The notes under the pieces: generated by a model | What the model was told of the DNA's origin: nothing | The model's input: the letters and a program-made list of their open reading frames with translations, nothing else | Databases searched by the model: none | Shown: positions 6,659 to 64,000 of the stretch, one piece after another | Layout: the number at the start of each line of letters is the position of its first letter | Numbering within the stretch: position 1 is the first letter of the stretch | Program-made: the position numbers and the translations under genes | Source of the DNA: an uncultured Bacteroidales bacterium | GTDB taxonomy: Bacteria; Bacteroidota; Bacteroidia; Bacteroidales; VadinHA17 | Length of the DNA stretch: 64,000 bases | Assembly: GCA_963843635.1 (NCBI GenBank) | Contig: CAWJLF010000012.1 | Coordinates: 143,259 to 207,258, forward strand | Direction: 5' to 3'

Positions 6659-7343
6659 TTTTCTTCTTCTCAATTATTTTGCTAATCCAAAGCATCTGCT
6701 CCTCAACTGTCATCCTGCTGTTATCGAGGATTAAGGCATCTTCAGCTCTCCTGAGAGGACTGATATCCCTGTTTTCATCAGCTATATCGCGTGCAATAAT
6801 GTTATTTTTTATTTCCTCGAAATCGACCTCAGTCCCTCTATGTCTGAGCTCGTCAAATCTTCTCCTTGCCCTGATATCAACAGAAGCAGTCATGAAAATT
6901 TTAAGGTCCGCGTGAGGGAACACTACTGTTCCAATATCCCTGCCATCCATTACAATTCCCCTGGATGCACCTATCTGTCTCTGTAACTCAACCATCCTCT
7001 CCCTGACCTCAGGTACCTGGCTCACCCTGCTTACATGCTTCGAAACCTCAATGCTCCTGATCTCATCTTCTACATTTTCTGAGTTAAGGAAAGTCTCATA
7101 TTCGGTCTTATCAGGATTATACACAAAGTCGATATGTATGTTCTCAAGCTCAGACAAAACAGCCGGAACATTAAGTAAATCCCCTTTAAAAAAAAGTCTT
7201 CTCATGCAATAGAGCGTTACTGCCCTGTACATTGCCCCACTGTCAATATAGAGATAATTAAGTTCTCTGGCAATGGATCGGGCGAAGGTACTTTTCCCAC
7301 ATGATGAATAACCGTCTATTGCTATTATTAGTTTCCTGTTCAT
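6648..7343 (-). CDS. cmk: (d)CMP kinase
   Basis: IIAIDGYSSCGKSTFARSIA P-loop, YIDSGAMYRA and MDGRDIGTVVFP motifs. Confidence 0.9.
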   Translation of the reverse strand: MNRKLIIAIDGYSSCGKSTFARSIARELNYLYIDSGAMYRAVTLYCMRRLFFKGDLLNVPAVLSELENIHIDFVYNPDKTEYETFLNSENVEDEIRSIEVSKHVSRVSQVPEVRERMVELQRQIGASRGIVMDGRDIGTVVFPHADLKIFMTASVDIRARRRFDELRHRGTEVDFEEIKNNIIARDIADENRDISPLRRAEDALILDNSRMTVEEQMLWISKIIEKKKNDS

Positions 7344-7363
7344 ACAAATTTTGCTGCTTATTT

Positions 7364-9418: not shown

Positions 9419-9642
9419 TTGTATTTATCCTGAAATTTATATTAAAGGCGTGCGAATTTAATTTTAATATTTCTAATTTTAATATTGTTAATTGAAAAAC
9501 CTTTAAAAACAAACACGGACCGGATGATTGTTTCGACCATATTTGCTGATTTGAACCAGATTGATCGCCATGGTCTTGATATATAATGAGATAATAGGAA
9601 TTTTGATTTCGAATATATGATAATATTGATGGTTTTTAGATT

Positions 9643-9655
9643 TGATTGTGAATCA
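9643..9655. promoter_or_regulatory. perfect palindrome TGATT-GTG-AATCA abutting the putative etf promoter
   Basis: tgattgtgaatca read directly. It lies 8 nt upstream of the TATATTTG box and within a 120-bp stretch holding five TTGAT words. Confidence 0.25.
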
Positions 9656-9662
9656 TAAATTA

Positions 9663-9670
9663 TTATATTT
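9663..9670 (+). promoter_or_regulatory. Bacteroidota-type -7 promoter box (TAnnTTTG) for etfB
   Basis: TATATTTG, 82 nt upstream of the etfB ATG in an AT-rich 330-bp intergenic region. Confidence 0.35.
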
Positions 9671-9751
9671 GCCGCCTCGAAGGTTTAAAATTTTGTTATT
9701 TATTCTATTAACCTGGTTAGTATAAGTTAATTAACTAATATCATAGATTAG

Positions 9752-10501
9752 ATGAAAATTCTGGTTTGTTTAAGTAATGTTCCCGATACCACTACTAAAA
9801 TCAAATTTGCCGAGGATAATACTTCAGTAGATACGAATGGAGTTCAGTGGGTCATAAACCCGTGGGACGAACTATCGCTGACCCGTGCTCTGGAATTAAA
9901 GGATGATGCAGGCAGTGGTATTAATTCAGTTACAGTTGTGCACGTTGGACCGGCTGCCTCTGAACCTACAATTCGGAAGGCTCTCGCTATTGGAGCCGAT
10001 GATGCTGTCAGGGTCAATTCTGAGTCATCGGATGCAATGTATGTTGCGGCTCAAATTGCGGAAGTTGTCAGAAAGGAGCAGTTTGATATTGTCATGTGTG
10101 GAATAGAATCTAGCGATTATAATGGTTCTGCCGTGGGCGGTATGGTGGCGGAATTCCTGGACATTCCATCTGTCTCAGCTGTTTCGGGTATTCAAATTGA
10201 AGGTGGCAAACCTGTTCTGACCCGTGAGATTGATGGGGGTAAAGAAGTTGTATCGGTTCCGGTGCCTTTCGTGGCGATTGTACAGAAAGGTATTGCAAAG
10301 GAGCCCAGGATAGCGGCTATGCGGGGGATAATGATGGCCAGGTCAAAGCCGGTGAAGCTTATTGAACCGGTTGCTGCAGAAATACTTACTGAAATAGTGG
10401 CCTACGAAAAACCTGCCCCACGTGCAGCTTGCAGGTTTATTGATGCTGAAAATGCAGAACAGCTGATCGATATTTTGCAGAACGAAGCGAAAGTAATCTG
10501 A
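9752..10501 (+). CDS. etfB: electron transfer flavoprotein beta subunit
   Basis: MKILVCLSNVPDTTTKIKF...NPWDELSLTRALELK is typical EtfB. It is followed directly by etfA. Confidence 0.9.
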   Translation: MKILVCLSNVPDTTTKIKFAEDNTSVDTNGVQWVINPWDELSLTRALELKDDAGSGINSVTVVHVGPAASEPTIRKALAIGADDAVRVNSESSDAMYVAAQIAEVVRKEQFDIVMCGIESSDYNGSAVGGMVAEFLDIPSVSAVSGIQIEGGKPVLTREIDGGKEVVSVPVPFVAIVQKGIAKEPRIAAMRGIMMARSKPVKLIEPVAAEILTEIVAYEKPAPRAACRFIDAENAEQLIDILQNEAKVI

Positions 10502-51502: not shown

Positions 51503-52282
51503 ATGGGAAGGACAATAGCAATTGCGAATCAGAAAGGTGGGGTAGGGAAGACAACAACAGCAATTAACCTTGCTGCCAGTCTGGCCGCTTTAGAGAAAAA
51601 GGTACTTATTGTTGACGCTGATCCACAGGCTAATGCTACATCAGGAATTGGAATAGACACAAGGCAGATAAGGAACACAATTTACGATTGCCTCATTGAT
51701 GAGAAGTTACCTTCAGAGGCTTTGATGAAGTGCAATATCGATAATCTGTCAATCATTCCATCGAACATCGACCTGGTGGGTGCTGAGATTGAGATGCTTG
51801 ATAGACCTGAGAGGGAGAAAATATTAAAGAAAGTATTGGAAAAGCTTGATATTGAATTTGACTATGTTCTGATTGATTGTTCGCCATCGCTCGGTCTCCT
51901 TACGGTAAATGCACTTACAGCTGCAGATTCTGTTATAATACCAGTTCAGTGCGAATATTTTGCTCTTGAGGGACTCGGCAAGCTTCTAAACACGATAAAG
52001 ATCATTCAGAATAATCTTAATCCAAAACTCGAGATAGAAGGATTTCTTCTGACCATGTATGACTCAAGGCTCAGGTTATCAAACCAGGTCGCTGATGAAG
52101 TGAACAAGCATTTTCAACAGATGGTCTTCAAGACCATTATTCAGCGTAATGTAAAACTTTCGGAAGCCCCGAGTTTCGGTCAACCTGCAATTCTCTATGA
52201 TGCTGATTCGAGAGGGACAGTGAATTATCTTAATCTGGCCAATGAATTGATAGAGAAGCTGGCAGAGAAAGTGGTACAGTAA
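51503..52282 (+). CDS. parA: chromosome partitioning ATPase ParA/Soj
   Basis: Deviant Walker A IAIANQKGGVGKTTTAINLA, 259 aa. Confidence 0.9.
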   Translation: MGRTIAIANQKGGVGKTTTAINLAASLAALEKKVLIVDADPQANATSGIGIDTRQIRNTIYDCLIDEKLPSEALMKCNIDNLSIIPSNIDLVGAEIEMLDRPEREKILKKVLEKLDIEFDYVLIDCSPSLGLLTVNALTAADSVIIPVQCEYFALEGLGKLLNTIKIIQNNLNPKLEIEGFLLTMYDSRLRLSNQVADEVNKHFQQMVFKTIIQRNVKLSEAPSFGQPAILYDADSRGTVNYLNLANELIEKLAEKVVQ

Positions 52283-52312
52283 ATTTTTAACATTTCAAGT
52301 GGAGTAACAATA

Positions 52313-53202
52313 ATGAATATGGCTAAGAAAAATGCGTTGGGAAGAGGTCTTGGTGCATTAATTGATGGTGTGGAGAAAGAAGTTCTTGAAAAAAAGGTTG
52401 AGGCAAATCGTGATATTCCGGTGGAATGCAATTGAGGCCAATCCTTTTCAGCCCAGAACTAATTTTGATGAACAATCTCTCGAGGAATTATCACTGTCAA
52501 TAAGAAAATTAGGCATCGTTCAGCCTCTTACTGTCAGGGAAACAAGTACTGGTCGGTACCAGCTCATAGCAGGGGAAAGAAGGTTAAGGGCAGCCCGTAT
52601 GGCGGGACTTACACATGTGCCTGCATTTATCAGGACGGCAGATGATCAGGCTATGCTTGAGCTGGCGCTTGTTGAGAATATCCAGCGCGAAGACCTTGAT
52701 GCCGTGGAGGTTGCGATCAGTTTTCAGCGACTCATTGAGGAGTGTAAACTTACCCAGGAACAACTTAGTGACAGGGTAGGAAAACAACGCTCTACAGTGG
52801 CCAATTACCTGAGGTTGCTGAGACTGCCGGCAGAGATACAGCTCGGTTTAAGAAATAAACAATTGATGATGGGTCACGCACGAACCCTCATAAGCATCGA
52901 TGATCCGAAAAAACAGATCAATGTCTATTATAAGATTATTAGACGGGGAACTGTCTGTACGTCAGGCAGAAGAACTGGTGAGTCATCTTCAGTCGGGACT
53001 TACAAAAGACCCGTCAAGGCTTGATAAAAAGAAGAAACTGAATGAAGACTTCGTTAAACTCTCAGATCATCTCAAAAAAATCTTTTCAGCTAGAGTTAAC
53101 TTCAGAATAAATGAAAACGGAAAAGGAAAGATCGTAATTCCTTTTGAGAATCCGGAAGAGATGGAACGCATTTTAGGAGTATTTGATCGCCTTAACTCCT
53201 GA
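52313..53202 (+). pseudogene. parB: chromosome partitioning protein ParB with two frame disruptions (about 52425 and about 52935)
   Basis: MNMAKKNALGRGLGALI starts at 52313. IEANPFQPR...GERRLRAA is in ORF 52362..53024. DGELSVRQAEELV is in ORF 52900..53202. Confidence 0.8.
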
Positions 53203-55544: not shown

Positions 55545-58523
55545 ATGCGTCCTTCAAGGTCATTCTTATTATTACTGATCTTTCTAATTTTTTTTACCGG
55601 TCTTTACTATATTATTCCGGCAATCGGGCTATTTCCACCTTTGACTGAGTTTATTCCCGGTAATATAATTCCGGGTTTATCATCATCAGAGATAAAAACT
55701 GAATATCCCCCCGGTGAGAAAACTGATACCCTTGAGATTTTATCAATACCTCCTTTACGCGTAATTAACTCATTACCTGGTGACTCAGCTAATATCAATC
55801 CTATTCAGAGGCTGGTTGATTCACTCAGATATTCCTCCGGACAGGTACGTGTAATGTATTATGGCGATTCACAACTTGAGGGTGACCGGATCAGTTCTTA
55901 CCTCAGACATATACTTAGAAAATATGACGCGGGAACGGGTCCGGGCCTGCTTCTTCCCTTAATGCCTATAATGTACACGAAGAGTGTTTGGGTTAAGTCA
56001 TCATCGAACTGGGAGAGATATAATTATCTCTCTTATAAGGAAGGTGTATTGTCGCATAATGCACTGGGCCCCTTCATGACAATCTGCCGCTTTATGCCTG
56101 AAGGCAGAAAAACCAGCAATCCTGAGAAAGCCTGGGTGAAAATAATACCCTCCGCTGTTGCCGACAGTGCATCTTCAATATATGACTTTCTGCGAATATT
56201 TTATGGGAATACATATGGATTGGTAAATGTCACTGTTAAATCAGGTGACTCCGTGATGATGTCCGAAAGCCTTAAGCCGGGAAAGGGGTTTAATGAGATC
56301 TCATGTAACCTTAACAAAAAACATAATGTTCATATTGAATTCACCGGGAATGTCAGTCCTGATATATACGGGATCAGCATTGAAAGTAAGAAAGGGCTTG
56401 TCCTGGACAATATTTCACAGAGAGGCAGTGCCGGGCTGGAATTTACAATGGTGGACAAACAAAACCTGAGCCAGGCATACGAAAGACTTTCCCCCGATCT
56501 TATAATTTTGCAGTACGGGCTGAATATCGTAAAAAACATAAAAGATAATTATGCTTATTACAGGAAAGGGCTGGGCAGGCAGCTTAATCTCCTGAAAGAG
56601 ATAGCTCCTTCTGCTGATATTCTTGTTGTAGGACTCACAGATATGGCAGAAAATGAGGGCGACAGCATCAAATCATTCGGTAATATCCCACTTATAATCA
56701 AAGCACAGGAACAGGCTGCCCTCAGTGCAGGCGCCACTTTCTGGAATGCTTTTAAGGCTATGGGCGGGAAATCCTCTATTGTCAAATGGACCGAGAAAAA
56801 CCCTCCTCTGGCACAGGAAGATTATGTGCATCTGACATACCCGGGTGCCGATACTCTTTCAAAGATCATGTTCGCTGCACTCTTCTCGCCGGCAATAAAT
56901 GACACTGTCCATAAGGATACGTTTACAGTTTCGAAGGACACTATTTCCCTTCCTACACATGCGACTATTATTCCCGCCAATGTTGAGACAATGCCCGAAA
57001 CTACCCTGAAAAAGATTATCTCGGCTCTTTTCAGGTATGATCCAGGTGAACCAATGATTTTTTCTGTTCCTGCTTTCTGGCTCTTTTTCCTGTTTGTACT
57101 GGCTGGTTACAGTTTTTTATATAAGAAGAAATTCGTACGAAATCTTTTCCTTTTTCTTGTCAGCCTTTTCTTCTATTACAAGTCTGGCGGATTATTTCTT
57201 TTGCTTCTGATTTTAGTGACGCTCGTTGATTACAGCTGTGGCTTGTTCATTTATCGTTCACGAAGTAAATATTCAAGGAAGTTATTTATCCTGGTTAGTA
57301 TCATCTCAAACCTGGGCATTTTGGCCTATTTTAAATACACCGGTTTCATTGTCCATTCTATTAATGAATTGCTGGGTACGGATTATCGGGTATATGATTT
57401 TCTGGCCGCTTTTTCAAATGTACAACTTGGCACCTCTTTCGATGTCAGCAATATCCTGCTGCCTGTGGGAATATCGTTTTTTACTTTTCAATCGCTAAGC
57501 TATACTCTTGATGTTTACCGGAAAAAAGTTGAACCTGTCAGGAACATAATCGATTTTGGGTTTTATGTTTCCTTCTTTCCCCAGCTGGTAGCCGGACCAA
57601 TTGTCCGTGCATCAGAATTTATTCCCCAGCTCTATAATGATTATCATCTCTCCAAAAGAGAATTCGGACATGCAGTATTTCTGATCTCAAAAGGGCTAAT
57701 AAAGAAAATTATTATCTCTGATTTTATTGCTGTCAACTTCATCGACAGGGTATTTGATGCACCTTCCATATATTCCGGATTTGAAAATCTGATGGCAATA
57801 TATGGCTATGGTCTTCAGATATACTGTGATTTTTCAGGTTATACTGATATAGCAATAGGGCTTGGGCTGATACTGGGCTTCCGTTTGCCAATTAACTTCA
57901 ACTCTCCGTATAAGGCTTCTAGTGTCAGTGATTTCTGGAAGCGATGGCATATATCACTCTCCAGGTGGTTAAAGGATTATCTGTATATACCCCTGGGAGG
58001 TAACAGGAAGGGAAAGTTCAGGACAACTGTTAACCTTATGATCACAATGATCCTGGGAGGACTGTGGCATGGGGCGAATATAAGATTTGTCTTTTGGGGA
58101 ATGCTGCACGGGGCCGGCCTGGTTTTCAATAAGATATGGCGATGGATATTCGGTGAGAGGAAGAGAAAGAATATTTTTCTTCGTGCTGTTTCCGTCTTTC
58201 TTACATTCCAGTTCGTCAATTTCGCCTGGGTCTTTTTCAGGTCAAATGATATGAATAATGCCAGGATCATGTTCAGGCAGATAACCGGTAGTTTCTCACC
58301 CGGATCGTACATGACGGTACTCCCGGCCTACAGCAATGTCTTTCTGCTTATTATTGCAGGATATGCCATCCATTTTCTTCCCGACAGAATAAAGGAATCT
58401 TACAGGGGCCTTTTCATAAGTATGCCTGTTATTATTCAGATGCTTATAGTTCTTCTTATTGCTGTCCTTTTATACCAGATGAGATCGGTAGGTGTGATGC
58501 CATTTATTTATTTCAGGTTCTGA
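55545..58523 (+). CDS. fusion protein: N-terminal TM anchor plus SGNH/GDSL-type esterase-acyltransferase domain plus C-terminal MBOAT O-acyltransferase (PatB/PatA- or AlgX/AlgI-like)
   Basis: SGNH blocks YYGDSQLEGD (I), QRGSAG (II), QYGLN (III) and EDYVHLT (V). MBOAT region FFTFQSLSYTLDVY, AGPIVR, WHISLSRWLKDYLYIPLGGNRKG, GGLWHGA. 992 aa, uninterrupted. Confidence 0.8.
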   Translation: MRPSRSFLLLLIFLIFFTGLYYIIPAIGLFPPLTEFIPGNIIPGLSSSEIKTEYPPGEKTDTLEILSIPPLRVINSLPGDSANINPIQRLVDSLRYSSGQVRVMYYGDSQLEGDRISSYLRHILRKYDAGTGPGLLLPLMPIMYTKSVWVKSSSNWERYNYLSYKEGVLSHNALGPFMTICRFMPEGRKTSNPEKAWVKIIPSAVADSASSIYDFLRIFYGNTYGLVNVTVKSGDSVMMSESLKPGKGFNEISCNLNKKHNVHIEFTGNVSPDIYGISIESKKGLVLDNISQRGSAGLEFTMVDKQNLSQAYERLSPDLIILQYGLNIVKNIKDNYAYYRKGLGRQLNLLKEIAPSADILVVGLTDMAENEGDSIKSFGNIPLIIKAQEQAALSAGATFWNAFKAMGGKSSIVKWTEKNPPLAQEDYVHLTYPGADTLSKIMFAALFSPAINDTVHKDTFTVSKDTISLPTHATIIPANVETMPETTLKKIISALFRYDPGEPMIFSVPAFWLFFLFVLAGYSFLYKKKFVRNLFLFLVSLFFYYKSGGLFLLLLILVTLVDYSCGLFIYRSRSKYSRKLFILVSIISNLGILAYFKYTGFIVHSINELLGTDYRVYDFLAAFSNVQLGTSFDVSNILLPVGISFFTFQSLSYTLDVYRKKVEPVRNIIDFGFYVSFFPQLVAGPIVRASEFIPQLYNDYHLSKREFGHAVFLISKGLIKKIIISDFIAVNFIDRVFDAPSIYSGFENLMAIYGYGLQIYCDFSGYTDIAIGLGLILGFRLPINFNSPYKASSVSDFWKRWHISLSRWLKDYLYIPLGGNRKGKFRTTVNLMITMILGGLWHGANIRFVFWGMLHGAGLVFNKIWRWIFGERKRKNIFLRAVSVFLTFQFVNFAWVFFRSNDMNNARIMFRQITGSFSPGSYMTVLPAYSNVFLLIIAGYAIHFLPDRIKESYRGLFISMPVIIQMLIVLLIAVLLYQMRSVGVMPFIYFRF

Positions 58524-58623
58524 GGCGTCAGGCTCCCGATAGCTATCGGGAAGGCATCAGGCGTCAGGCGGCAGGCAGCAAGGTATCGGAAGATATCAGG
58601 TTCTTGATTCCCCTCCCCGGAGG
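58524..58623. repeat. intergenic repeat copy A: GGCNNCA heptads, the CCCGATAG/CTATCGGG palindrome and a 41-bp core
   Basis: ggcgtca ggctccc ... ggcatca ggcgtca ggcggca ggcagca, then the core ggtatcggaagatatcaggttcttgattcccctccccggag. The core matches the reverse complement of 62938-62981 at 38/41. Confidence 0.65.
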
Positions 58624-58636
58624 TACCATCATAGTA

Positions 58637-59869
58637 TTACAGGTATCCCACTCCAGGGTCTCTCTTCCCTTTCACAAAAGGCGCCACAGCCCTGTCATAA
58701 ATTCCCTGAACATAAGCTATAGCCATACCATAGTTGGTAACAGGTACCCCGGCTTTTATTGCTGGCAGCAAGCGGTTATGAAGCTGTCTCCTGGTTATCA
58801 TGCATCCGCCGCATTGTATCACAAGTGAGTAATCTGTAACCTGACGAGGCAATAAATCAAGCCCTGCCACAGTATCATATTCGAGCTTCTTGCCGGTAAA
58901 ACTACTTATCCATCGGGGTATTTTGGTTCTTCCTATATCATCGCAGGATACATGATGAGTGCATGACTCCAGCAGCAGTATCCTGTCGCCGTCTTTCAAA
59001 GATGATATACTGGGTGTTCCCTTAATGTAATTATCGAAATCCCCTTTAAAGCGTGCGAGCATTATGCTGAAACTTGTCAGCGGTATATCAGCCGGAACAG
59101 AGGCATCAGCTTTCACAAATACCTGGGAGTCAGTCACAGCAAGGGCTGGTTTAATCCCGGTTCTCTTAAGGAAAGTATCCACCTCTCTCTCCTTTAGTAT
59201 TATTGCAACAGCCTCATTGTCGAGAATATCTCTAATTGCCTGAACCTGAGGAAGTATTAATCGTCCTGCAGGAGCTTCCACGTCAATAGGTGTTATCAAT
59301 AAAACTATGTCACCATATTTTATGAGGTCACCCAGGAGGGTTTGTGTTCTCCAGGAGTGTTCCGGTATGGTGTTTTTTATGAGAGTAATAAGTGCTTCAT
59401 AGTTTCGTTTGTCAAAAGCTGAGAATTCAAAAGGGGCAATACCGGCTGACTTTGTCACATCAATGCGGAAGGAATCAGACAGCTCATCCAGGTCCGATTT
59501 ATTATGTATTATTATAAACGGAACATCCAGGTCCCTGAATTTTGAAACAAGATCATCTTCGGCACTCCCCCAGGAATTATTAGTAATTACCAGGATACCA
59601 AGGTCTATTTCACTAAGAGTTTTTAATGTTTTACCAATCCTTTTTTCACCCAGCTCTCCTGAATCATCTATCCCGGCAGTATCGACAAGTATGACCGGAC
59701 CAAAACCTGTGATCTCAAAACTCTTTTTTACGGGATCGGTTGTTGTCCCGGCATGATCGGAAACGATCGCTATATCCTGGCCCGCAAGACAGTTGATAAG
59801 ACTGCTCTTGCCTTTATTACGACGACCATAGATACCGATATGCGGTTTCGATTCCCTGCCTTTTACCAT
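58637..59869 (-). CDS. hydF: [FeFe]-hydrogenase H-cluster maturation GTPase HydF
   Basis: GRRNKGKSSLINCLAG...TTTDPV...DTAGIDD GTPase motifs, plus C-terminal Fe-S ligand motifs CTHH...CGGC. Confidence 0.85.
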   Translation of the reverse strand: MVKGRESKPHIGIYGRRNKGKSSLINCLAGQDIAIVSDHAGTTTDPVKKSFEITGFGPVILVDTAGIDDSGELGEKRIGKTLKTLSEIDLGILVITNNSWGSAEDDLVSKFRDLDVPFIIIHNKSDLDELSDSFRIDVTKSAGIAPFEFSAFDKRNYEALITLIKNTIPEHSWRTQTLLGDLIKYGDIVLLITPIDVEAPAGRLILPQVQAIRDILDNEAVAIILKEREVDTFLKRTGIKPALAVTDSQVFVKADASVPADIPLTSFSIMLARFKGDFDNYIKGTPSISSLKDGDRILLLESCTHHVSCDDIGRTKIPRWISSFTGKKLEYDTVAGLDLLPRQVTDYSLVIQCGGCMITRRQLHNRLLPAIKAGVPVTNYGMAIAYVQGIYDRAVAPFVKGKRDPGVGYL

Positions 59870-59934
59870 TTGTTTGGAATTTGGTGCAAAATTAGTAATT
59901 TTTATGTCAGTATCAGCTATAGATTTCTCTGTTG

Positions 59935-60014
59935 TCCTCCGTACTCCTCAGTGTAACCATGCATTATTAATAACTTTCACATTGATCACAAAGCTGACAA
60001 AGAGTTGCACAGAG
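59935..60014. repeat. degenerate short word repeats (TCCTCCGT/ACTCCTCAGT; CACAAAG/GACAAAG/GCACAGAG) in the aspA-hydF spacer
   Basis: Read directly. Similar word types (CTGAGG, CGCGAAG, CGCAAAG, CTTTGTG, CTTTGCG) occur inside the 42597-42845 element. Confidence 0.4.
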
Positions 60015-60059
60015 TATTTAAGGCAATATCCGTTCGAGATGAGTGAGTAATTAAAGTTT

Positions 60060-61577
60060 TCAGAGGTCATCCAATGAGAAACCAAGTTTGAGGAGGTTTC
60101 CGGAATCAAGGATAGTTCTTAGTCTGGACTCATCGAGTAGGTGAAGGACCGAGTTAGCCTCGAAGATGTCAAAACCCTTCTCTTTCATAAGTAAAGCAAG
60201 TTCAGATGCTTTGTGATATCCTGTATACGGAATAAGAGCAGTAGTTATCGAAGGGCTATGGATAAGGGCATCATAAGCAGATTTTTCATCTATTGTAAGG
60301 CCGGTGATCAGGTTTTCCAGTAAAGTTTTATTGCAAGATATCAGTAGTTTAATGCTTTCGATAACTGCACATCCGATAACAGGAATATATGCATTCAGCT
60401 CCAGCATACCCTGGCTGCAGAGAGAACTTATCAGCATATCATTTGAATATATCCTGTGTGAAGATGAGATTACAAATTCGGGAATAACAGGATTTATCTT
60501 TCCTGGCATAATGGAACTACCAACCTGTCGTTCAGGTATAGTCAAGGTTTTGTCCCTGCTTATATCTGAAGCCAGCATACGTATGTCAGAGACCATTTTT
60601 TCTAGGTTTACTGCGTGAGCTTTTAAGGTGGCATGAATCTCCACCCATTTATCCAGGTTCGAAGTGGCGTCGGCCAGGTTTTCACTATGCGCAAGAGGCA
60701 GGTTGGTGAGTTGACGTAACTCCGGGACGACCTCCATAATAAAATAACGGGGCAGGGACAGGCCTGTACCCGTGGCTCCACCACCGAGATTAATCTGTTT
60801 GATTCTTTCGGCACATTTTGATACTCGCCACCAATCACGGGATAATGCTTCATTATATGTGCTGAACAGCATACCGAAAGATGAAGGAACTGCTTCCTGC
60901 ATCTGTGTATAGCCAATCCGGAGCTTTTCCCTGGATGATCTTTCAATATGTTCAATTTTCCCACGTAGTGTATTAATCTGTTCTTCGAGTGCGTGCAGGA
61001 GCTTCATTACGGCTACAGCGAGAGCAGTGGGTATTACATCGTTAGTCGACTGGTAGATATTAGCATGTTCAAGCGGATCAATAAAATCATAATCACCGCA
61101 TCTCTTTCCAGTATGCAGAAGAGCAAGATTAGTAATTATCTCATTGATATTCATGTTGATACTTGTGCCGGCCCCTCCCTGTACAGCAGGAATAATAAAC
61201 TGATCGAAGTGATCACCATCTGATACTCCCATAGCTGCATTACTTAGAGCATCAAGGATTTTGTCGTCGATCCTCTTATAAGCATTAGATGGTCCATACT
61301 TTTCTTCAGCTGCTTTCCGGAATCGCCTGTAAGTATTATAGCATGCCAGTTTTGTTATTCCAACAGCCTCATACCACTCACGCGGAAATTGAGAGTCACC
61401 GGGAAAATTCTCCTTAGCCCTTACAGCATGTATTCCATACAATGCATCAGTAGGGATTTGTTTTTCTCCAAGTGTATCTTTTTCAATCCGGTACATGTAT
61501 ATTTTGTATTTCTTAATATTCCTGAGTGTTTCCAGCTCTTCCTTGTGAGTCCCGTTGCCGTTTCTTTCTTTTGTCAT
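60060..61577 (-). CDS. aspA: aspartate ammonia-lyase (fumarate-lyase superfamily)
   Basis: GSSIMPGKINPVIPE signature, TNDVIPTA and GTGLS motifs. The true start may be the internal MYRIEKDTLGE at 61496. Confidence 0.85.
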   Translation of the reverse strand: MTKERNGNGTHKEELETLRNIKKYKIYMYRIEKDTLGEKQIPTDALYGIHAVRAKENFPGDSQFPREWYEAVGITKLACYNTYRRFRKAAEEKYGPSNAYKRIDDKILDALSNAAMGVSDGDHFDQFIIPAVQGGAGTSINMNINEIITNLALLHTGKRCGDYDFIDPLEHANIYQSTNDVIPTALAVAVMKLLHALEEQINTLRGKIEHIERSSREKLRIGYTQMQEAVPSSFGMLFSTYNEALSRDWWRVSKCAERIKQINLGGGATGTGLSLPRYFIMEVVPELRQLTNLPLAHSENLADATSNLDKWVEIHATLKAHAVNLEKMVSDIRMLASDISRDKTLTIPERQVGSSIMPGKINPVIPEFVISSSHRIYSNDMLISSLCSQGMLELNAYIPVIGCAVIESIKLLISCNKTLLENLITGLTIDEKSAYDALIHSPSITTALIPYTGYHKASELALLMKEKGFDIFEANSVLHLLDESRLRTILDSGNLLKLGFSLDDL

Positions 61578-61622
61578 CGGTGAAAAGCCAGGAGTCAGGA
61601 GGGAGCATAAAGGCGTTAAAGG

Positions 61623-62798
61623 TTAAACATTACCTTCCGATACAGGTCTTGCATAAGCCTGAACATCCTTCCCTTTTATATCAGAAGGACAAAGGATAAT
61701 AAGTCTTTCCAGAACATTTCTGAATTCCCTGACATTTCCTGTCCAGGTTATATTTTGAAGCTCTTTAATAGCGTCTTCAGTAATAATTTTTTTACTCATT
61801 CCGTATTCATTACATATCATTGTAATAAAATGGTCCGCAAGCAGTGGAATATCTTCAGTCCTTTCGTTAAGAGTAGGCACATGAATCAGGATGACACTAA
61901 GCCTGTGGTAGAGGTCCTCCCTGAATCCATTGTTCTCAATCTCCTTCTTTATATTTTTATTTGTGGCTGTTACAATCCTTACATTCACATGTATATCTTT
62001 ATCGGATCCAACTCGGGTTATCTTGTTTTCCTGAAGTGCCCTTAGCACTTTTGCCTGTGCTGAGAGACTCATATCCCCAATCTCATCAAGAAACAATGTT
62101 CCTCCTGTTGCCTGTTCAAACTTCCCAATTCTCTGTTTGATGGCAGATGTAAAGGAGCCTTTCTCATGTCCGAAGAGCTCACTCTCTATCAGTTCTGATG
62201 GGATAGCAGCACAATTGACCTCAACAAACGGGCCTTTTGCCCTGGGACTCTTTTCGTGGATCTGGTGAGCTACAAGTTCTTTTCCGGTCCCGTTAGCACC
62301 GGTAATGAGTACCCTTGCTTCAGTGGAAGCCACACGGTCAATCATATTTTTCACCTGTTCAATAGCCTCAGACTGTCCAACAATCTCATACATCTTGCTG
62401 ACCTTGTTTTTAAGGACTTGTGTCTGAGTAATCAGTGAAGACTTATCCATCGCATTGCGTATGGTAATAAGCAGTCTGTTCAGATCGAGAGGTTTCTCGA
62501 GAAAATCGAAAGCACCTTTTTTTATAGCTTCTACTGCAGTATCGATATTACCATGCCCCGATATCATTACGACAGGTGTATCAGATGATATCTCAGTGAT
62601 CCTGCCAAGGACCTCAATACCATCCATCTTGGCCATTTTAATATCACAGAGCACTATGTCATAAGTATTTGCAGCGAACATCTCAATGCCGGTCGGTCCA
62701 TCTTCGGCCAGGTCAACTTCGTATTTTTCATACTCAAGGACTTCCTTCAGTGTATTCCTTATCGCTTTTTCATCATCAATTACGAGTATTTTTGACAT
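61623..62798 (-). CDS. sigma-54-dependent response regulator (REC plus AAA+), lacking a C-terminal HTH domain
   Basis: REC: ILVIDDE...DIVLCDIKMAKMDG. AAA+: ITGANGTGKELVA, and GHEKGSFTSA in place of GAFTGA. It ends about 25 aa after NVREFRNVLERLIIL, with only 45 nt to the next gene. Confidence 0.85.
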   Translation of the reverse strand: MSKILVIDDEKAIRNTLKEVLEYEKYEVDLAEDGPTGIEMFAANTYDIVLCDIKMAKMDGIEVLGRITEISSDTPVVMISGHGNIDTAVEAIKKGAFDFLEKPLDLNRLLITIRNAMDKSSLITQTQVLKNKVSKMYEIVGQSEAIEQVKNMIDRVASTEARVLITGANGTGKELVAHQIHEKSPRAKGPFVEVNCAAIPSELIESELFGHEKGSFTSAIKQRIGKFEQATGGTLFLDEIGDMSLSAQAKVLRALQENKITRVGSDKDIHVNVRIVTATNKNIKKEIENNGFREDLYHRLSVILIHVPTLNERTEDIPLLADHFITMICNEYGMSKKIITEDAIKELQNITWTGNVREFRNVLERLIILCPSDIKGKDVQAYARPVSEGNV

Positions 62799-62875
62799 CT
62801 TTCTCTCTTTTTAATCAACGCTAATCCATCCCGGGAGTGGATATTTAATCAATTATCAGTCACCTTTAGTTATCG

Positions 62876-63036
62876 TGTCACCTGTCGCCTGCCGCCTTTT
62901 TCAACCCGCCCCTAACCCCACGCAGAGCGTGGCAGGCTCTCCAGGGAGGGGAATCAAAAACCTGATATCTTTCGATACACTGTCGCCTGCCGCCTGTCGC
63001 CTGCCGCCTGCCGCCTGCCGCCTAATGCCAATCGCC
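62876..63036. repeat. intergenic repeat copy B (inverted relative to A): 3 heptads, spacer with hairpin CCACGC-aga-GCGTGG, the 41-bp core, and 8 TG(C/T)CGCC heptads
   Basis: tgtcacc tgtcgcc tgccgcc ... core ccagggaggggaatcaaaaacctgatatctttcgatacac ... tgtcgcc tgccgcc tgtcgcc tgccgcc tgccgcc tgccgcc taatgcc aatcgcc. Confidence 0.65.
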
Positions 63037-63040
63037 TAAC

Positions 63041-64000
63041 TTATCCCCTGTATGACAGCCATTTCCACATCTCTTTCCATGAGGTTTTTTTGCCGTACAT
63101 CAATATGCCGGTTCTATAAACCTTGGCTGCCATCAGGACAAAGAGCGCGAATGTTATTAACATAATGACCATCGAAACAGCGATCTGCCAGTATGGAACG
63201 CCGAATGGAATCCGGGCCATCATTACGATAGGAGAGGTGAGAGGTATCATTGAGCACCAGAATGAAAGGGAACTCTCCGGATTTTGCATGGTACCCATTG
63301 CGACCATCAGGGCCAGAATAATCGGTATTGTCACCGGCAACATGAATTGCTGCGTTTCGGTCTCGTTGTCAACCGCTGATCCAATAGCCGCAAATACGGA
63401 AGCGTATAGAAGATAACCTGTAGCAAAGTAGAATATAAAACAGATGATTATCAGTCCCCAAGGCTGATTCATTGCACTGTCAAACAGTTTAGAGAACTCG
63501 GCAAGCTGAGGCGAGACTTCAGAAGTCTGAACTGCTGTAGCAACAGTATCGCTTTTTACTGACATCATGCTCTGAGGATTCATCTGCGCAATTTCGGTGA
63601 GGTCGGTTTTTTGAAGAACAGTAGTCTTAAGCACTGTTACAATTCCCAGGGTGAGCATGATCCAGATGAAAAACTGGGTAAGGCCCACGAGTGCTATACC
63701 GATTATTTTCCCCATCATAAGCTGTACCGGTTTAACTGAAGATATGATAACCTCAACAACTCGGCTGGTTTTCTCTTCTATGACTCCGCGCATCACCTGT
63801 GCACCGAAGATAAAAACGAGCATATACATCAGAAACCCCAGTATATATGCCAGGGCCATTGCAATTCCTGTACTTGTTTTCTTAACTTGTCCAGATGAGT
63901 CGATCTTGATAGTCTGTATTGAAACATTTGTTTCAATATTCTTCATTATCTCGTTTAGATCCTGGATGTTGTAGGCTAGCAGTTTCTGTCGTTCAATCTC
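63041..64000 (-). CDS. ABC-2 type transporter permease (NatB-like), 5' end outside window
   Basis: C-terminal 6-TM ABC-2 permease pattern with the EEKTSRVVEVIISSVKP motif. The frame stays open upstream of the listed Met to the window edge (..EIERQKLLAYNIQDLNEIMKN). Confidence 0.65.
   Translation of the reverse strand, partial: EIERQKLLAYNIQDLNEIMKNIETNVSIQTIKIDSSGQVKKTSTGIAMALAYILGFLMYMLVFIFGAQVMRGVIEEKTSRVVEVIISSVKPVQLMMGKIIGIALVGLTQFFIWIMLTLGIVTVLKTTVLQKTDLTEIAQMNPQSMMSVKSDTVATAVQTSEVSPQLAEFSKLFDSAMNQPWGLIIICFIFYFATGYLLYASVFAAIGSAVDNETETQQFMLPVTIPIILALMVAMGTMQNPESSLSFWCSMIPLTSPIVMMARIPFGVPYWQIAVSMVIMLITFALFVLMAAKVYRTGILMYGKKTSWKEMWKWLSYRG

Follow-up and report, generated by a model that had tools for sequence, protein, structure and literature searches.

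Heptanucleotide-repeat spacers in inverted orientation at the two ends of a hydF, lyase and sigma-54 activator block of an uncultured Bacteroidales bacterium: probable simple-sequence arrays with one local partial duplication

The DNA considered here, referred to throughout as the window, is a stretch of 64 kb from a 303-kb contig of an uncultured Bacteroidales bacterium. Towards its end lie three minus-strand genes:

58637-59869, minus strand: HydF gene
60060-61577, minus strand: gene for a Lyase_1 aspartase/fumarase-like protein
61623-62798, minus strand: gene for a REC and sigma-54 AAA+ activator, without an HTH domain

A preliminary description had drawn attention to two copies of a repeat-bearing element, here called A and B, that bracket these three genes, and the positions bear this out. 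Copy A fills the gap between the stop codon of hydF (58637-58639) and that of a convergent MBOAT/GDSL open reading frame (58521-58523), and copy B lies between the ATG of the activator gene at 62798 and the stop of an ABC-2 permease gene at 63041; both heptad loci are outside coding sequence, in a stop/stop and a stop/start spacer, respectively. The GC content of the 4.3-kb bracketed segment is unremarkable. Look-ups of the exact HydF, lyase and MBOAT protein sequences of the window turned up no entry. The two copies are made up as follows:

58524-58633, plus strand: copy A, 110 nt inserted after the MBOAT stop and ahead of a conserved GTA followed by TTA, the hydF stop (junction comparison)
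58524-58530, plus strand: isolated heptad GGCGTCA, immediately 3' of the MBOAT stop codon (from the sequence)
58534-58551, no strand assigned: perfect 18-nt palindrome TCCCGATAGCTATCGGGA, without a counterpart in copy B (from the sequence)
58553-58580, plus strand: four tandem heptads of copy A, GGCATCA GGCGTCA GGCGGCA GGCAGCA (heptad pattern scan, TRF)
58583-58622, plus strand: core of copy A, made up of 23 lineage-specific nt on the left and the 17 nt GATTCCCCTCCCCGGAG on the right
62799-62875, minus strand: unique leader of 77 nt that separates copy B from the activator ATG, absent in the sister species
62876-62896, minus strand: proximal heptad cluster of copy B, three units reading GGCGGCA GGCGACA GGTGACA in the gene sense (pattern scan, strain comparison)
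62896-62955, minus strand: ancestral 60-nt module, consisting of GATTCCCCTCCCTGGAG, the hairpin CCACGC-TCT-GCGTGG and GGGGTTAGGGGCGGGTTGAAAAAG (alignment of relatives)
62939-62978, minus strand: core of copy B, with 23 lineage-specific nt on the left and an overlap of 17 nt with the start of the module (pattern scan, alignment)
62981-63036, minus strand: distal heptad array of copy B, six units plus two degenerate, starting 4 nt past the permease stop codon

When the two cores are compared, 58583-58622 on the plus strand with 62939-62978 on the minus strand, there are 3 mismatches in 40 nt, and 100 shuffles gave no chance match, which upholds the claim of a shared core in opposite orientation. 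The similarity runs further than the core first described, through arms of 74 nt (58549-58622 and 62939-63012) that are 85% complementary; the homology is confined to these 74 nt and ends at GGAG. A short GC hairpin had been placed near each copy, and both hairpins exist but are unrelated to each other, that of copy B reading CCACGC-AGA-GCGTGG on the plus strand at about 62919-62933. The distance of copy B upstream of the activator start, given as 80-240 nt, was measured as 78-238 nt from the ATG.

The heptad pattern (two units, 14 nt) matches nine times in the 64-kb window compared to 0.21 expected, all nine of them at A and B, and TRF reports a period of 7 with 6.3 copies and 91% matches. 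Arrays adjoin the core as had been reported, with four contiguous units in copy A and, in copy B, three units on one side and on the other six (62981-63022) followed by two degenerate ones (63023-63036). A contig from a second strain (L001) is 99.1% identical to the window over 5.86 kb and has only two indels relative to it in this distance, both within the heptad arrays of copy B: one GGCGGCA unit fewer in the distal array, and a 1-nt indel in the proximal cluster. The slipped-strand variation that had been thought plausible is thus real. The sister species vary in their own arrays too, a 16-mer being present 4 or 5 times depending on the sample, and neighbouring spacers in sister species have local hairpins made of arrays and their inverted complements. 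Two further observations concern the relatives more widely: array hairpins are seen in nearly every spacer of the clade, and in one relative a run of N falls precisely on the array spacer.

For the wider gene neighbourhood we compared 17 related contigs from sister lineages (L083-L099), 15 of which span part of the block beyond hydF. Wherever it is spanned, the gene order is that of the window, namely GrpE, DnaJ, ABC ATPase, permease, activator, Lyase_1 and HydF, followed by a convergent MBOAT gene, SLT/LysM, DUF5683, ParB and ParA; permease, sigma-54 activator, lyase and HydF have the same order and orientation in 15 related contigs. Judged by this synteny, the three-gene block is an old and fixed part of the chromosome, neither mobile nor invertible, and the interpretation placed on the bracketing fails, the order and orientation of the block being ancestral across the relatives.

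The copy A insertion is absent in the sister species, where the hydF and MBOAT stops are 3 bp apart. This junction is 3 bp wide in L083, L084-L093 and L095-L099, and the empty site of L083 and L084 reads TAG-TAC-TTA; by this comparison, copy A was inserted later, into what in relatives is a gap of 3 bp. The junction is filled with unrelated arrays in two other contigs, GGTCTTGC repeated 11 times in L082 and CACAGAG 10-mers with CACCAAG heptads in L094. L082 comes from JGI 3300062818 and is among the lineages whose HydF is 90-99% identical. Compared with the heptad part of copy A for possible homology, the L082 junction scores 29, where shuffles gave 18.4 +/- 3.6 and at most 33. No duplicated flank, and so no target-site duplication, is found at copy A relative to the empty site of L083/L084, and the 110-nt insertion, which starts with GGCGTCAGGC and finishes with GGTACCATCATA, has no inverted repeats at its ends.

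At the other site, L084-L089, which represent the sister species, match the 60-nt module with 91.7% identity in the corresponding position, and L083 has it in shortened form; in the sister species the module ends 6 nt ahead of the activator ATG, with no 77-nt leader. The left core and the heptads are absent at site B in all of L083-L089, where the module is present. On this alignment, the 41-nt core of the preliminary description is evidently the junction of a lineage-specific piece with the first 17 nt of an ancestral module.

These features are probably best explained as ordinary intergenic heptanucleotide simple-sequence repeats together with one local inverted partial duplication. Copy B would be the native spacer between the ABC-2 permease and sigma-54 activator genes, composed in gene-sense order of a slippage-prone GGCGGCA/GGCGACA array after the permease stop, a lineage-specific piece of about 23 nt, the module and a second heptad cluster, with the module (about 60 nt, C-rich, hairpin, G-rich) inherited from the common ancestor with the sister species. 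Copy A would be a secondary, reverse-complement partial duplicate of B that took with it array, lineage-specific piece and 17 nt of the module, and since these 17 nt are ancestral only at B, we infer that copying went from B to A. As there are no terminal inverted repeats, target-site duplication or transposase, the likeliest route would be strand-switch (template-switch) copying or repair-associated capture. The arrays grow and shrink by replication slippage, as the strain comparison shows, and most likely are near-neutral spacer DNA with at most a generic effect on spacing, insulation or RNA structure; that A and B lie at both ends of what may be a transcription unit is taken to be coincidental. 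Two points sit less comfortably with this account. The heptads are GC-rich (71-86% GC) in a genome of 41% GC and thus not what simple drift favours, and the colonisation of the same junction three times independently hints at an active seeding process, which the account does not specify.

Similar arrays are known, and according to Mrazek et al. 2007, as summarised in PMC4679880, long simple-sequence repeats with units of 5-11 nt, especially heptanucleotide, occur in bacterial intergenic regions. Assemblages of TAACTGA and other heptamers are found in Gramella, Aequorivita and Elizabethkingia, all Bacteroidetes, and repeat-bearing Bacteroidetes have close relatives with the same gene neighbourhood and no repeats in it (PMC4679880). 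The arrays studied here also consist of tandem units in this size range beyond chance, outside coding sequence and polymorphic in unit number between strains; like the Bacteroidetes heptamers they are head-to-tail, intergenic, near stop or start codons and variable in copy number, with relatives whose spacers are shorter and without repeats in the same gene neighbourhood. They differ in the unit, GGCGGCA/GGCGACA, which is GC-rich in an AT-rich genome, and in that one array appears to have been copied, together with 41 nt of adjoining non-repetitive sequence, to another site in inverted form. Cyanobacterial STRR sequences are heptamer repeats as well. Quadruplex-forming GGGNATC repeats occur in Xanthomonas and Nostoc (PMC4692102). 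Like both of these, the present arrays are heptameric, intergenic, less than about 50 bp from stop codons on the sense strand and variable in number; however, those families run to hundreds of copies per genome and contain G-tracts for G-quadruplexes, whereas two sites were seen here in the 64-kb window and GGCGGCA, unlike GGGNATC, has no G-tracts of at least 3.

It is also conceivable, though we think it unlikely, that A and B are members of a dispersed REP/MITE-like family consisting of heptad array and core, with the bracketing incidental. Short-unit arrays are common in other Bacteroidota loci, and what favours a family is that units of the CTCTGTG/CACAGAG type recur at 3-4 intergenic sites within 10 kb in sister genomes, that GGCRCANN-type units are present at two unrelated sites, and that the hydF/MBOAT junction has been filled independently in three lineages. 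The REP and BIME elements of enterobacteria are extragenic, lie at gene 3' ends or between convergent genes and sometimes form inverted pairs; REPs are imperfect palindromes of 20-40 nt with hundreds of copies, linked to RAYT transposases. The present elements resemble these in being extragenic, at a gene 3' end or convergent junction and in an inverted pair, but the core is not an imperfect palindrome with a stable hairpin, the folds of its two copies having energies of -7.5 kcal/mol (z-score +1.4 relative to shuffles) and -6.8 kcal/mol (z-score +0.1), and no RAYT-type gene was seen in the region scanned, at about 43-64 kb. A MITE with an internal minisatellite and many copies, BrickBuilt, is known in Porphyromonas gingivalis (PMC4596501), and shares with our elements that it is a non-coding Bacteroidales element of unique sequence with an internal tandem array; it differs in that for our elements two copies were seen in the 64-kb window, and copy A has neither the terminal inverted repeats nor the target-site duplication that mark a MITE.

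As far as the searches reach, the number of copies also argues against such a family. The window has two core copies, 4.3 kb apart, and no further copy was found in it or across 1.5 Mb of related loci. Scans with the 23-mer of the core gave no matches in 185,579 GTDB species genomes or in JGI metagenome contigs, a scan of IMG/VR with the left core gave none, and BLASTN of copy B against plasmids and phages found no match. A gapped pattern for the module had no matches in metagenome contigs, a collection evidently without relevant samples, and the translated core (both copies, four stop-free frames, concatenated) had none among 5.8 billion protein clusters, in a search of low sensitivity that needs a called ORF. 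Moreover, the core is partly ancestral at site B. More core copies could lie elsewhere in the genome, beyond the 64 kb read. The idea of a dispersed family is thus right in spirit for the arrays, which recur at the level of the clade, while for the 41-nt core the collections searched gave no positive evidence.

The chances appear slim that the heptads serve as iterons bound by a protein, or as a phase-variable spacer through which changes in copy number tune activator expression. A regulator gene does lie downstream of the array, strains differ in the number of units, and phase variation through intergenic simple-sequence repeats is among the phenomena described for other bacteria in PMC12721329 and PMC4679880. 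However, close relatives carry different units at the same site (GGCGGCA, GGAGAAGAGGTGAAGC and GGGAGAAT), which argues against a conserved sequence-specific binding site and against the suggestion of heptad iterons. The array also lies right after the upstream stop codon, at 180-240 nt from the ATG, a DNA-binding domain is lacking in the activator, and the same heptads stand at the convergent junction, which offers no promoter for them to tune. Beside the array we recognised no promoter elements, and none of Bacteroidota type or sigma-70 type that would account for copy B. Two candidates were set aside, a sigma-54 promoter in the heptads (GG-N10-GC spacing), which is a by-product of the repeat, and a sigma-70-like match at 62881-62852, which is not meaningful for this phylum.

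Little probability attaches to a role in RNA, by which copy A, 3' of hydF, would pair over about 74 nt with copy B, upstream of the activator, in minus-strand RNA to give a duplex or RNase III target coupling activator, lyase and hydF. Both elements closely flank the coding sequences of the block, one ahead of the first and one behind the last, and could ride on such RNA, the duplex is predicted at -146 kcal/mol compared to -60 for shuffles, and the local hairpins in neighbouring spacers of the sister species fit in with the idea. Such an energy is, however, expected from any inverted duplicate, copy A is missing in most relatives that keep the same block, and a conserved -7 box of Bacteroidota type (TAnnTTTG) belongs to hydF itself, so that the three genes need not share one transcript. 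Searches of Rfam 15 gave no match at the gathering score and nothing credible at E-values up to 10, and the folds of A, B, core and module are not better than those of shuffles (z-scores from +2.1 to -0.9). A consensus scan for intrinsic terminators found no site at A or B, the sequence 3' of the hairpins being AGGCAUC or GGUUAGGGG, with no U runs. A C(GNRA)G loop in GTATC-GRAA-GATAT was considered as a structured RNA and rejected on the overall fold statistics. Long-range duplexes do have analogues in the processing stalks that flank rRNA and in the 5'/3' UTR pairing of icaR and hbs, and we give a slight probability to the inverted duplicate having been retained for such a role, with a predicted A-B duplex that brackets the messages and sets their stability or processing. 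If true, the array hairpins of the clade would be an evolvable insulation of transcription units arising from self-expanding short repeats.

Least probable, and largely refuted, is the proposal that the pair delimits a 4.3-kb segment that is invertible or was mobilised horizontally: though Bacteroidales are rich in invertible regions and inverted repeats with 74-nt arms do flank the segment on both sides, as in an inverton, the opposite orientation is seen in none of the assembled contigs of 2 strains and 15 relatives, the activator keeps its ancestral place beside the permease gene, copy B is partly ancestral and copy A a later insertion, the GC content of the segment is unremarkable, and no recombinase or transposase domain is found within about 15 kb (ORFs from 43.6 kb to the end of the window, and 2.8 kb beyond in L001).

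With heptanucleotide arrays and one local inverted duplication as the favoured explanation, the finding is largely ordinary. Its significance for biology at large is little, being one more case of a hypervariable heptamer array in the spacers of Bacteroidota, and it serves as a warning that a flanking inverted repeat alone is not to be read as mobility. The arrays are natural strain markers, and are also a cause of assembly breaks. A candidate cis element, as yet uncharacterised, is the conserved 60-nt module ahead of a sigma-54 activator without a DNA-binding domain. To our knowledge there is no accepted mechanism for the seeding of short tandem arrays in bacterial intergenic DNA, and the 3-bp junction between hydF and the MBOAT gene, found in empty, differently filled and duplicated states, offers a clean natural series for this process.

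The elements are two intergenic spacers, copy A (58524-58633) and copy B (62876-63036), in which 7-nt repeats (heptads) adjoin a shared core lying in opposite orientation:

58583-58622, plus strand: 40-nt core, copy A
62939-62978, minus strand: 40-nt core, copy B

The two cores differ at 3 of 40 positions, where no match is expected by chance, and ungapped extension gives arms of 74 nt (58549-58622 and 62939-63012) that are 85% complementary. TGCCGCC/TGTCGCC-type heptads, complements included, match nine times in the 64 kb, where TRF was also run, compared to 0.21 expected, and solely at A and B; the inverted pair and its heptads are thus genuine. Copy A occupies the 113-nt stop-to-stop gap between an MBOAT/GDSL gene (992 aa, plus strand) and hydF (minus strand). 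Copy B lies between an ABC-2 permease gene's stop codon and the ATG of a gene encoding a REC+sigma-54 AAA+ activator that lacks an HTH domain. As claimed in the preliminary description, the pair therefore brackets the genes for HydF, Lyase_1 (aspartase/fumarase-like) and the activator; the hairpins described near both cores also exist, though they are unrelated to one another. The window is part of a 303-kb NCBI/ENA contig; the source genome is from the Bacteroidales and its GC content is about 41%, and its closest species-level relatives have up to 85% amino-acid identity in the activator.

Suspected slipped-strand variation in the heptads is borne out by a second strain (L001, GCA_964463235.1, 8.7 kb), which is 99.1% identical to the window across 5,858 nt; the differences are 45 substitutions and two indels. 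Both indels fall in copy B arrays, the distal one having one GGCGGCA unit fewer and the proximal cluster one base more, which demonstrates slippage-type variation. Further afield we compared sister lineages (L083 to L099, from ENA, JGI, NCBI and Logan; HydF identity 83-85%), in which the same spacer is filled differently:

Sequence between the permease stop and the activator gene in sister lineages
L084-L089: 16-mer GGAGAAGAGGTGAAGC, 4 or 5 copies by sample; then an unrelated stretch and a 60-nt module, which stops 6 nt short of the ATG
L083: one purine-rich unit, no array; then a shortened module, its inner hairpin lost
L094: GGGAGAAT x15; then an unrelated perfect hairpin followed by GGTTTAAAAAAA
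L097: 16-mers; no hairpin

The L084-L089 module, GATTCCCCTCCCTGGAGAGCCTGCC-CCGCTTTGCGG-GGGGTTAGGGGTGGGTTTAAAAAG, is 91.7% identical to window 62896-62955 at the same site, so that the core's right 17 nt open an ancestral candidate cis element; unique to the window lineage are the left 23 nt (GTATCGRAAGATATCAGGTTYTT) and the GGCGGCA heptads. The module (minus strand in the window; L084 7011-7070) comprises a C-rich part, a hairpin and a G-rich part including GGGGTTAGGGG, immediately ahead of the activator gene, whose product lacks a DNA-binding domain; it is replaced by the unrelated perfect hairpin in L094 and missing in L097. In one NCBI MAG contig (L095), a run of about 100 Ns at ~7266-7363 covers exactly the permease-to-activator spacer, which fits arrays that break or confuse short-read assembly.

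The history of copy A can be read from the hydF/MBOAT junction, where the two stops lie 3 bp apart (TAG-TAC-TTA) in L083, L084-L093 and L095-L099, and exactly where the window carries a 110-nt insertion (58524-58633). Likeness between A and B is limited to the array, the left part of the core and the 17 nt that open the module, ending at GGAG, and since those 17 nt are ancestral at B only, we infer copying from B to A. Strand-switch copying or capture during repair may have produced copy A, either of which fits the reverse-complement orientation and 4.3-kb distance; we looked for terminal inverted repeats and a target-site duplication at the insertion and found neither. Independent fills occupy the junction in L082 (HydF 94% identical; 1379-1468, GGTCTTGC x11) and in L094 (11231-11488, nine CACAGAG-type 10-mers and ten CACCAAG heptads), so arrays seem to be seeded at this junction as at a hot spot. 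A perfect 18-nt palindrome in copy A, TCCCGATAGCTATCGGGA (58534-58551), is found exactly at 9876-9893 of a Cyclobacteriaceae MAG contig (L038), within an RNase P class A RNA gene (Rfam 246 bits, 9525-9931) just upstream of the activator orthologue; this could be chance hairpin convergence or a captured fragment.

It had been suggested that the elements belong to a dispersed REP/MITE-like family. Arrays of short units do clearly recur at clade level: three or four spacers of L084 and L094 hold hairpins in which CTCTGTG/CACAGAG arrays face inverted arrays, a comparable hairpin made of GGCRCANN octads separates the EPSP synthase and GrpE genes of L083 and L095, and heptamer arrays are present at other Bacteroidota loci (e.g. 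L009, L013). However, we found no further copy of the core in the rest of the window, in 1.5 Mb of related loci, or in 185,579 species genomes, JGI metagenomes, IMG/VR, plasmids and phages, and no match to its translations among 5.8 billion protein clusters, which argues against an abundant or widespread core family in the window and these collections. The sister-species hairpins, present in many spacers, are long and imperfect, a short-unit tandem array facing its inverse complement, and the loop frequently contains a run of T. Within 10 kb, one unit family (CTCTGTG-type 10-mers or GGCRCANN octads) turns up in several spacers, whereas just a decayed remnant is left in the window, at 59960-60020.

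Array hairpins in sister-species spacers
L084: 8252-8335, 9844-9944
L094: 4470-4560, 8290-8375, 9855-9960
L083: 2867-2950
L095: 2883-2975

A functional reading by long-range RNA pairing between A and B has a low probability: the predicted duplex (-146 kcal/mol compared to -60 for shuffles) is expected of any inverted duplicate, and a single transcript from B to A is unneeded, as hydF carries its own conserved TAnnTTTG box. In all lineages this Bacteroidota-type -7 box, TAATTTTG/TAAATTTG, precedes the hydF ATG by some 20-30 nt:

Window 59880-59915, minus strand: hydF -7 box
L083/L084/L094, about 9960-9990: hydF -7 box

It suggests a separate promoter for hydF, whose transcription would not be strictly tied to that of the lyase and activator genes. 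Heptad iterons for a DNA-binding protein are disfavoured because units at one site differ among close relatives. Copies A and B match no Rfam family, neither they nor the core and module fold better than shuffled sequence, and no terminator (hairpin plus U-tract) was found at either copy. For all these reasons we treat the arrays as near-neutral spacer DNA driven by slippage.

The proposal that A and B are ends of a mobilised or invertible segment is not supported, since all contigs of L083-L099 that span the block share gene order and orientation (GrpE, DnaJ, ABC ATPase, ABC-2 permease, activator, Lyase_1, HydF, convergent MBOAT, SLT/LysM, DUF5683, ParB, ParA), its neighbours in the window are the same, and there is no recombinase or transposase from 43.6 kb up to where the window ends, nor over the next 2.8 kb; on this gene arrangement the block is not mobile. 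In a more distant Bacteroidales contig (L002, 9958-11258) the activator gene still lies between the permease and MBOAT genes, without lyase and hydF, which implies that the group gained or lost these two genes together. There, a convergent 1003-aa ORF occupies the MBOAT position directly after the activator, itself 85% identical. About 6 kb from copy A lies a chromosomal parA/parB pair (window 51503-53024), which could place the region close to the replication origin; the window ParB ORF is listed at 220 aa compared to 293-295 aa in relatives, probably through start-codon choice.

According to the survey of Mrazek et al. 2007 as summarised in PMC4679880, heptanucleotide arrays are the most frequent long simple-sequence repeat class in prokaryotes; they are known in Bacteroidetes spacers, with close relatives having the same gene neighbourhood without repeats (PMC4679880). 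G-rich heptamers occur close to stop codons in Xanthomonas and Nostoc (PMC4692102), and a Porphyromonas MITE contains an internal minisatellite (PMC4596501). The A and B arrays have the defining features of simple-sequence arrays, and they do not fit the MITE, REP, inverton and terminator features that we tested: terminal inverted repeats with a target-site duplication, a palindromic hairpin in the core, a second orientation in the contigs compared or a recombinase nearby, and a hairpin with a U-tract. The finding is thus one of intergenic heptamer simple-sequence repeats, a known kind, together with one local inverted partial duplication. Two points are still of interest: arrays were seeded repeatedly and independently at a single 3-bp junction, and a conserved module precedes the activator gene.
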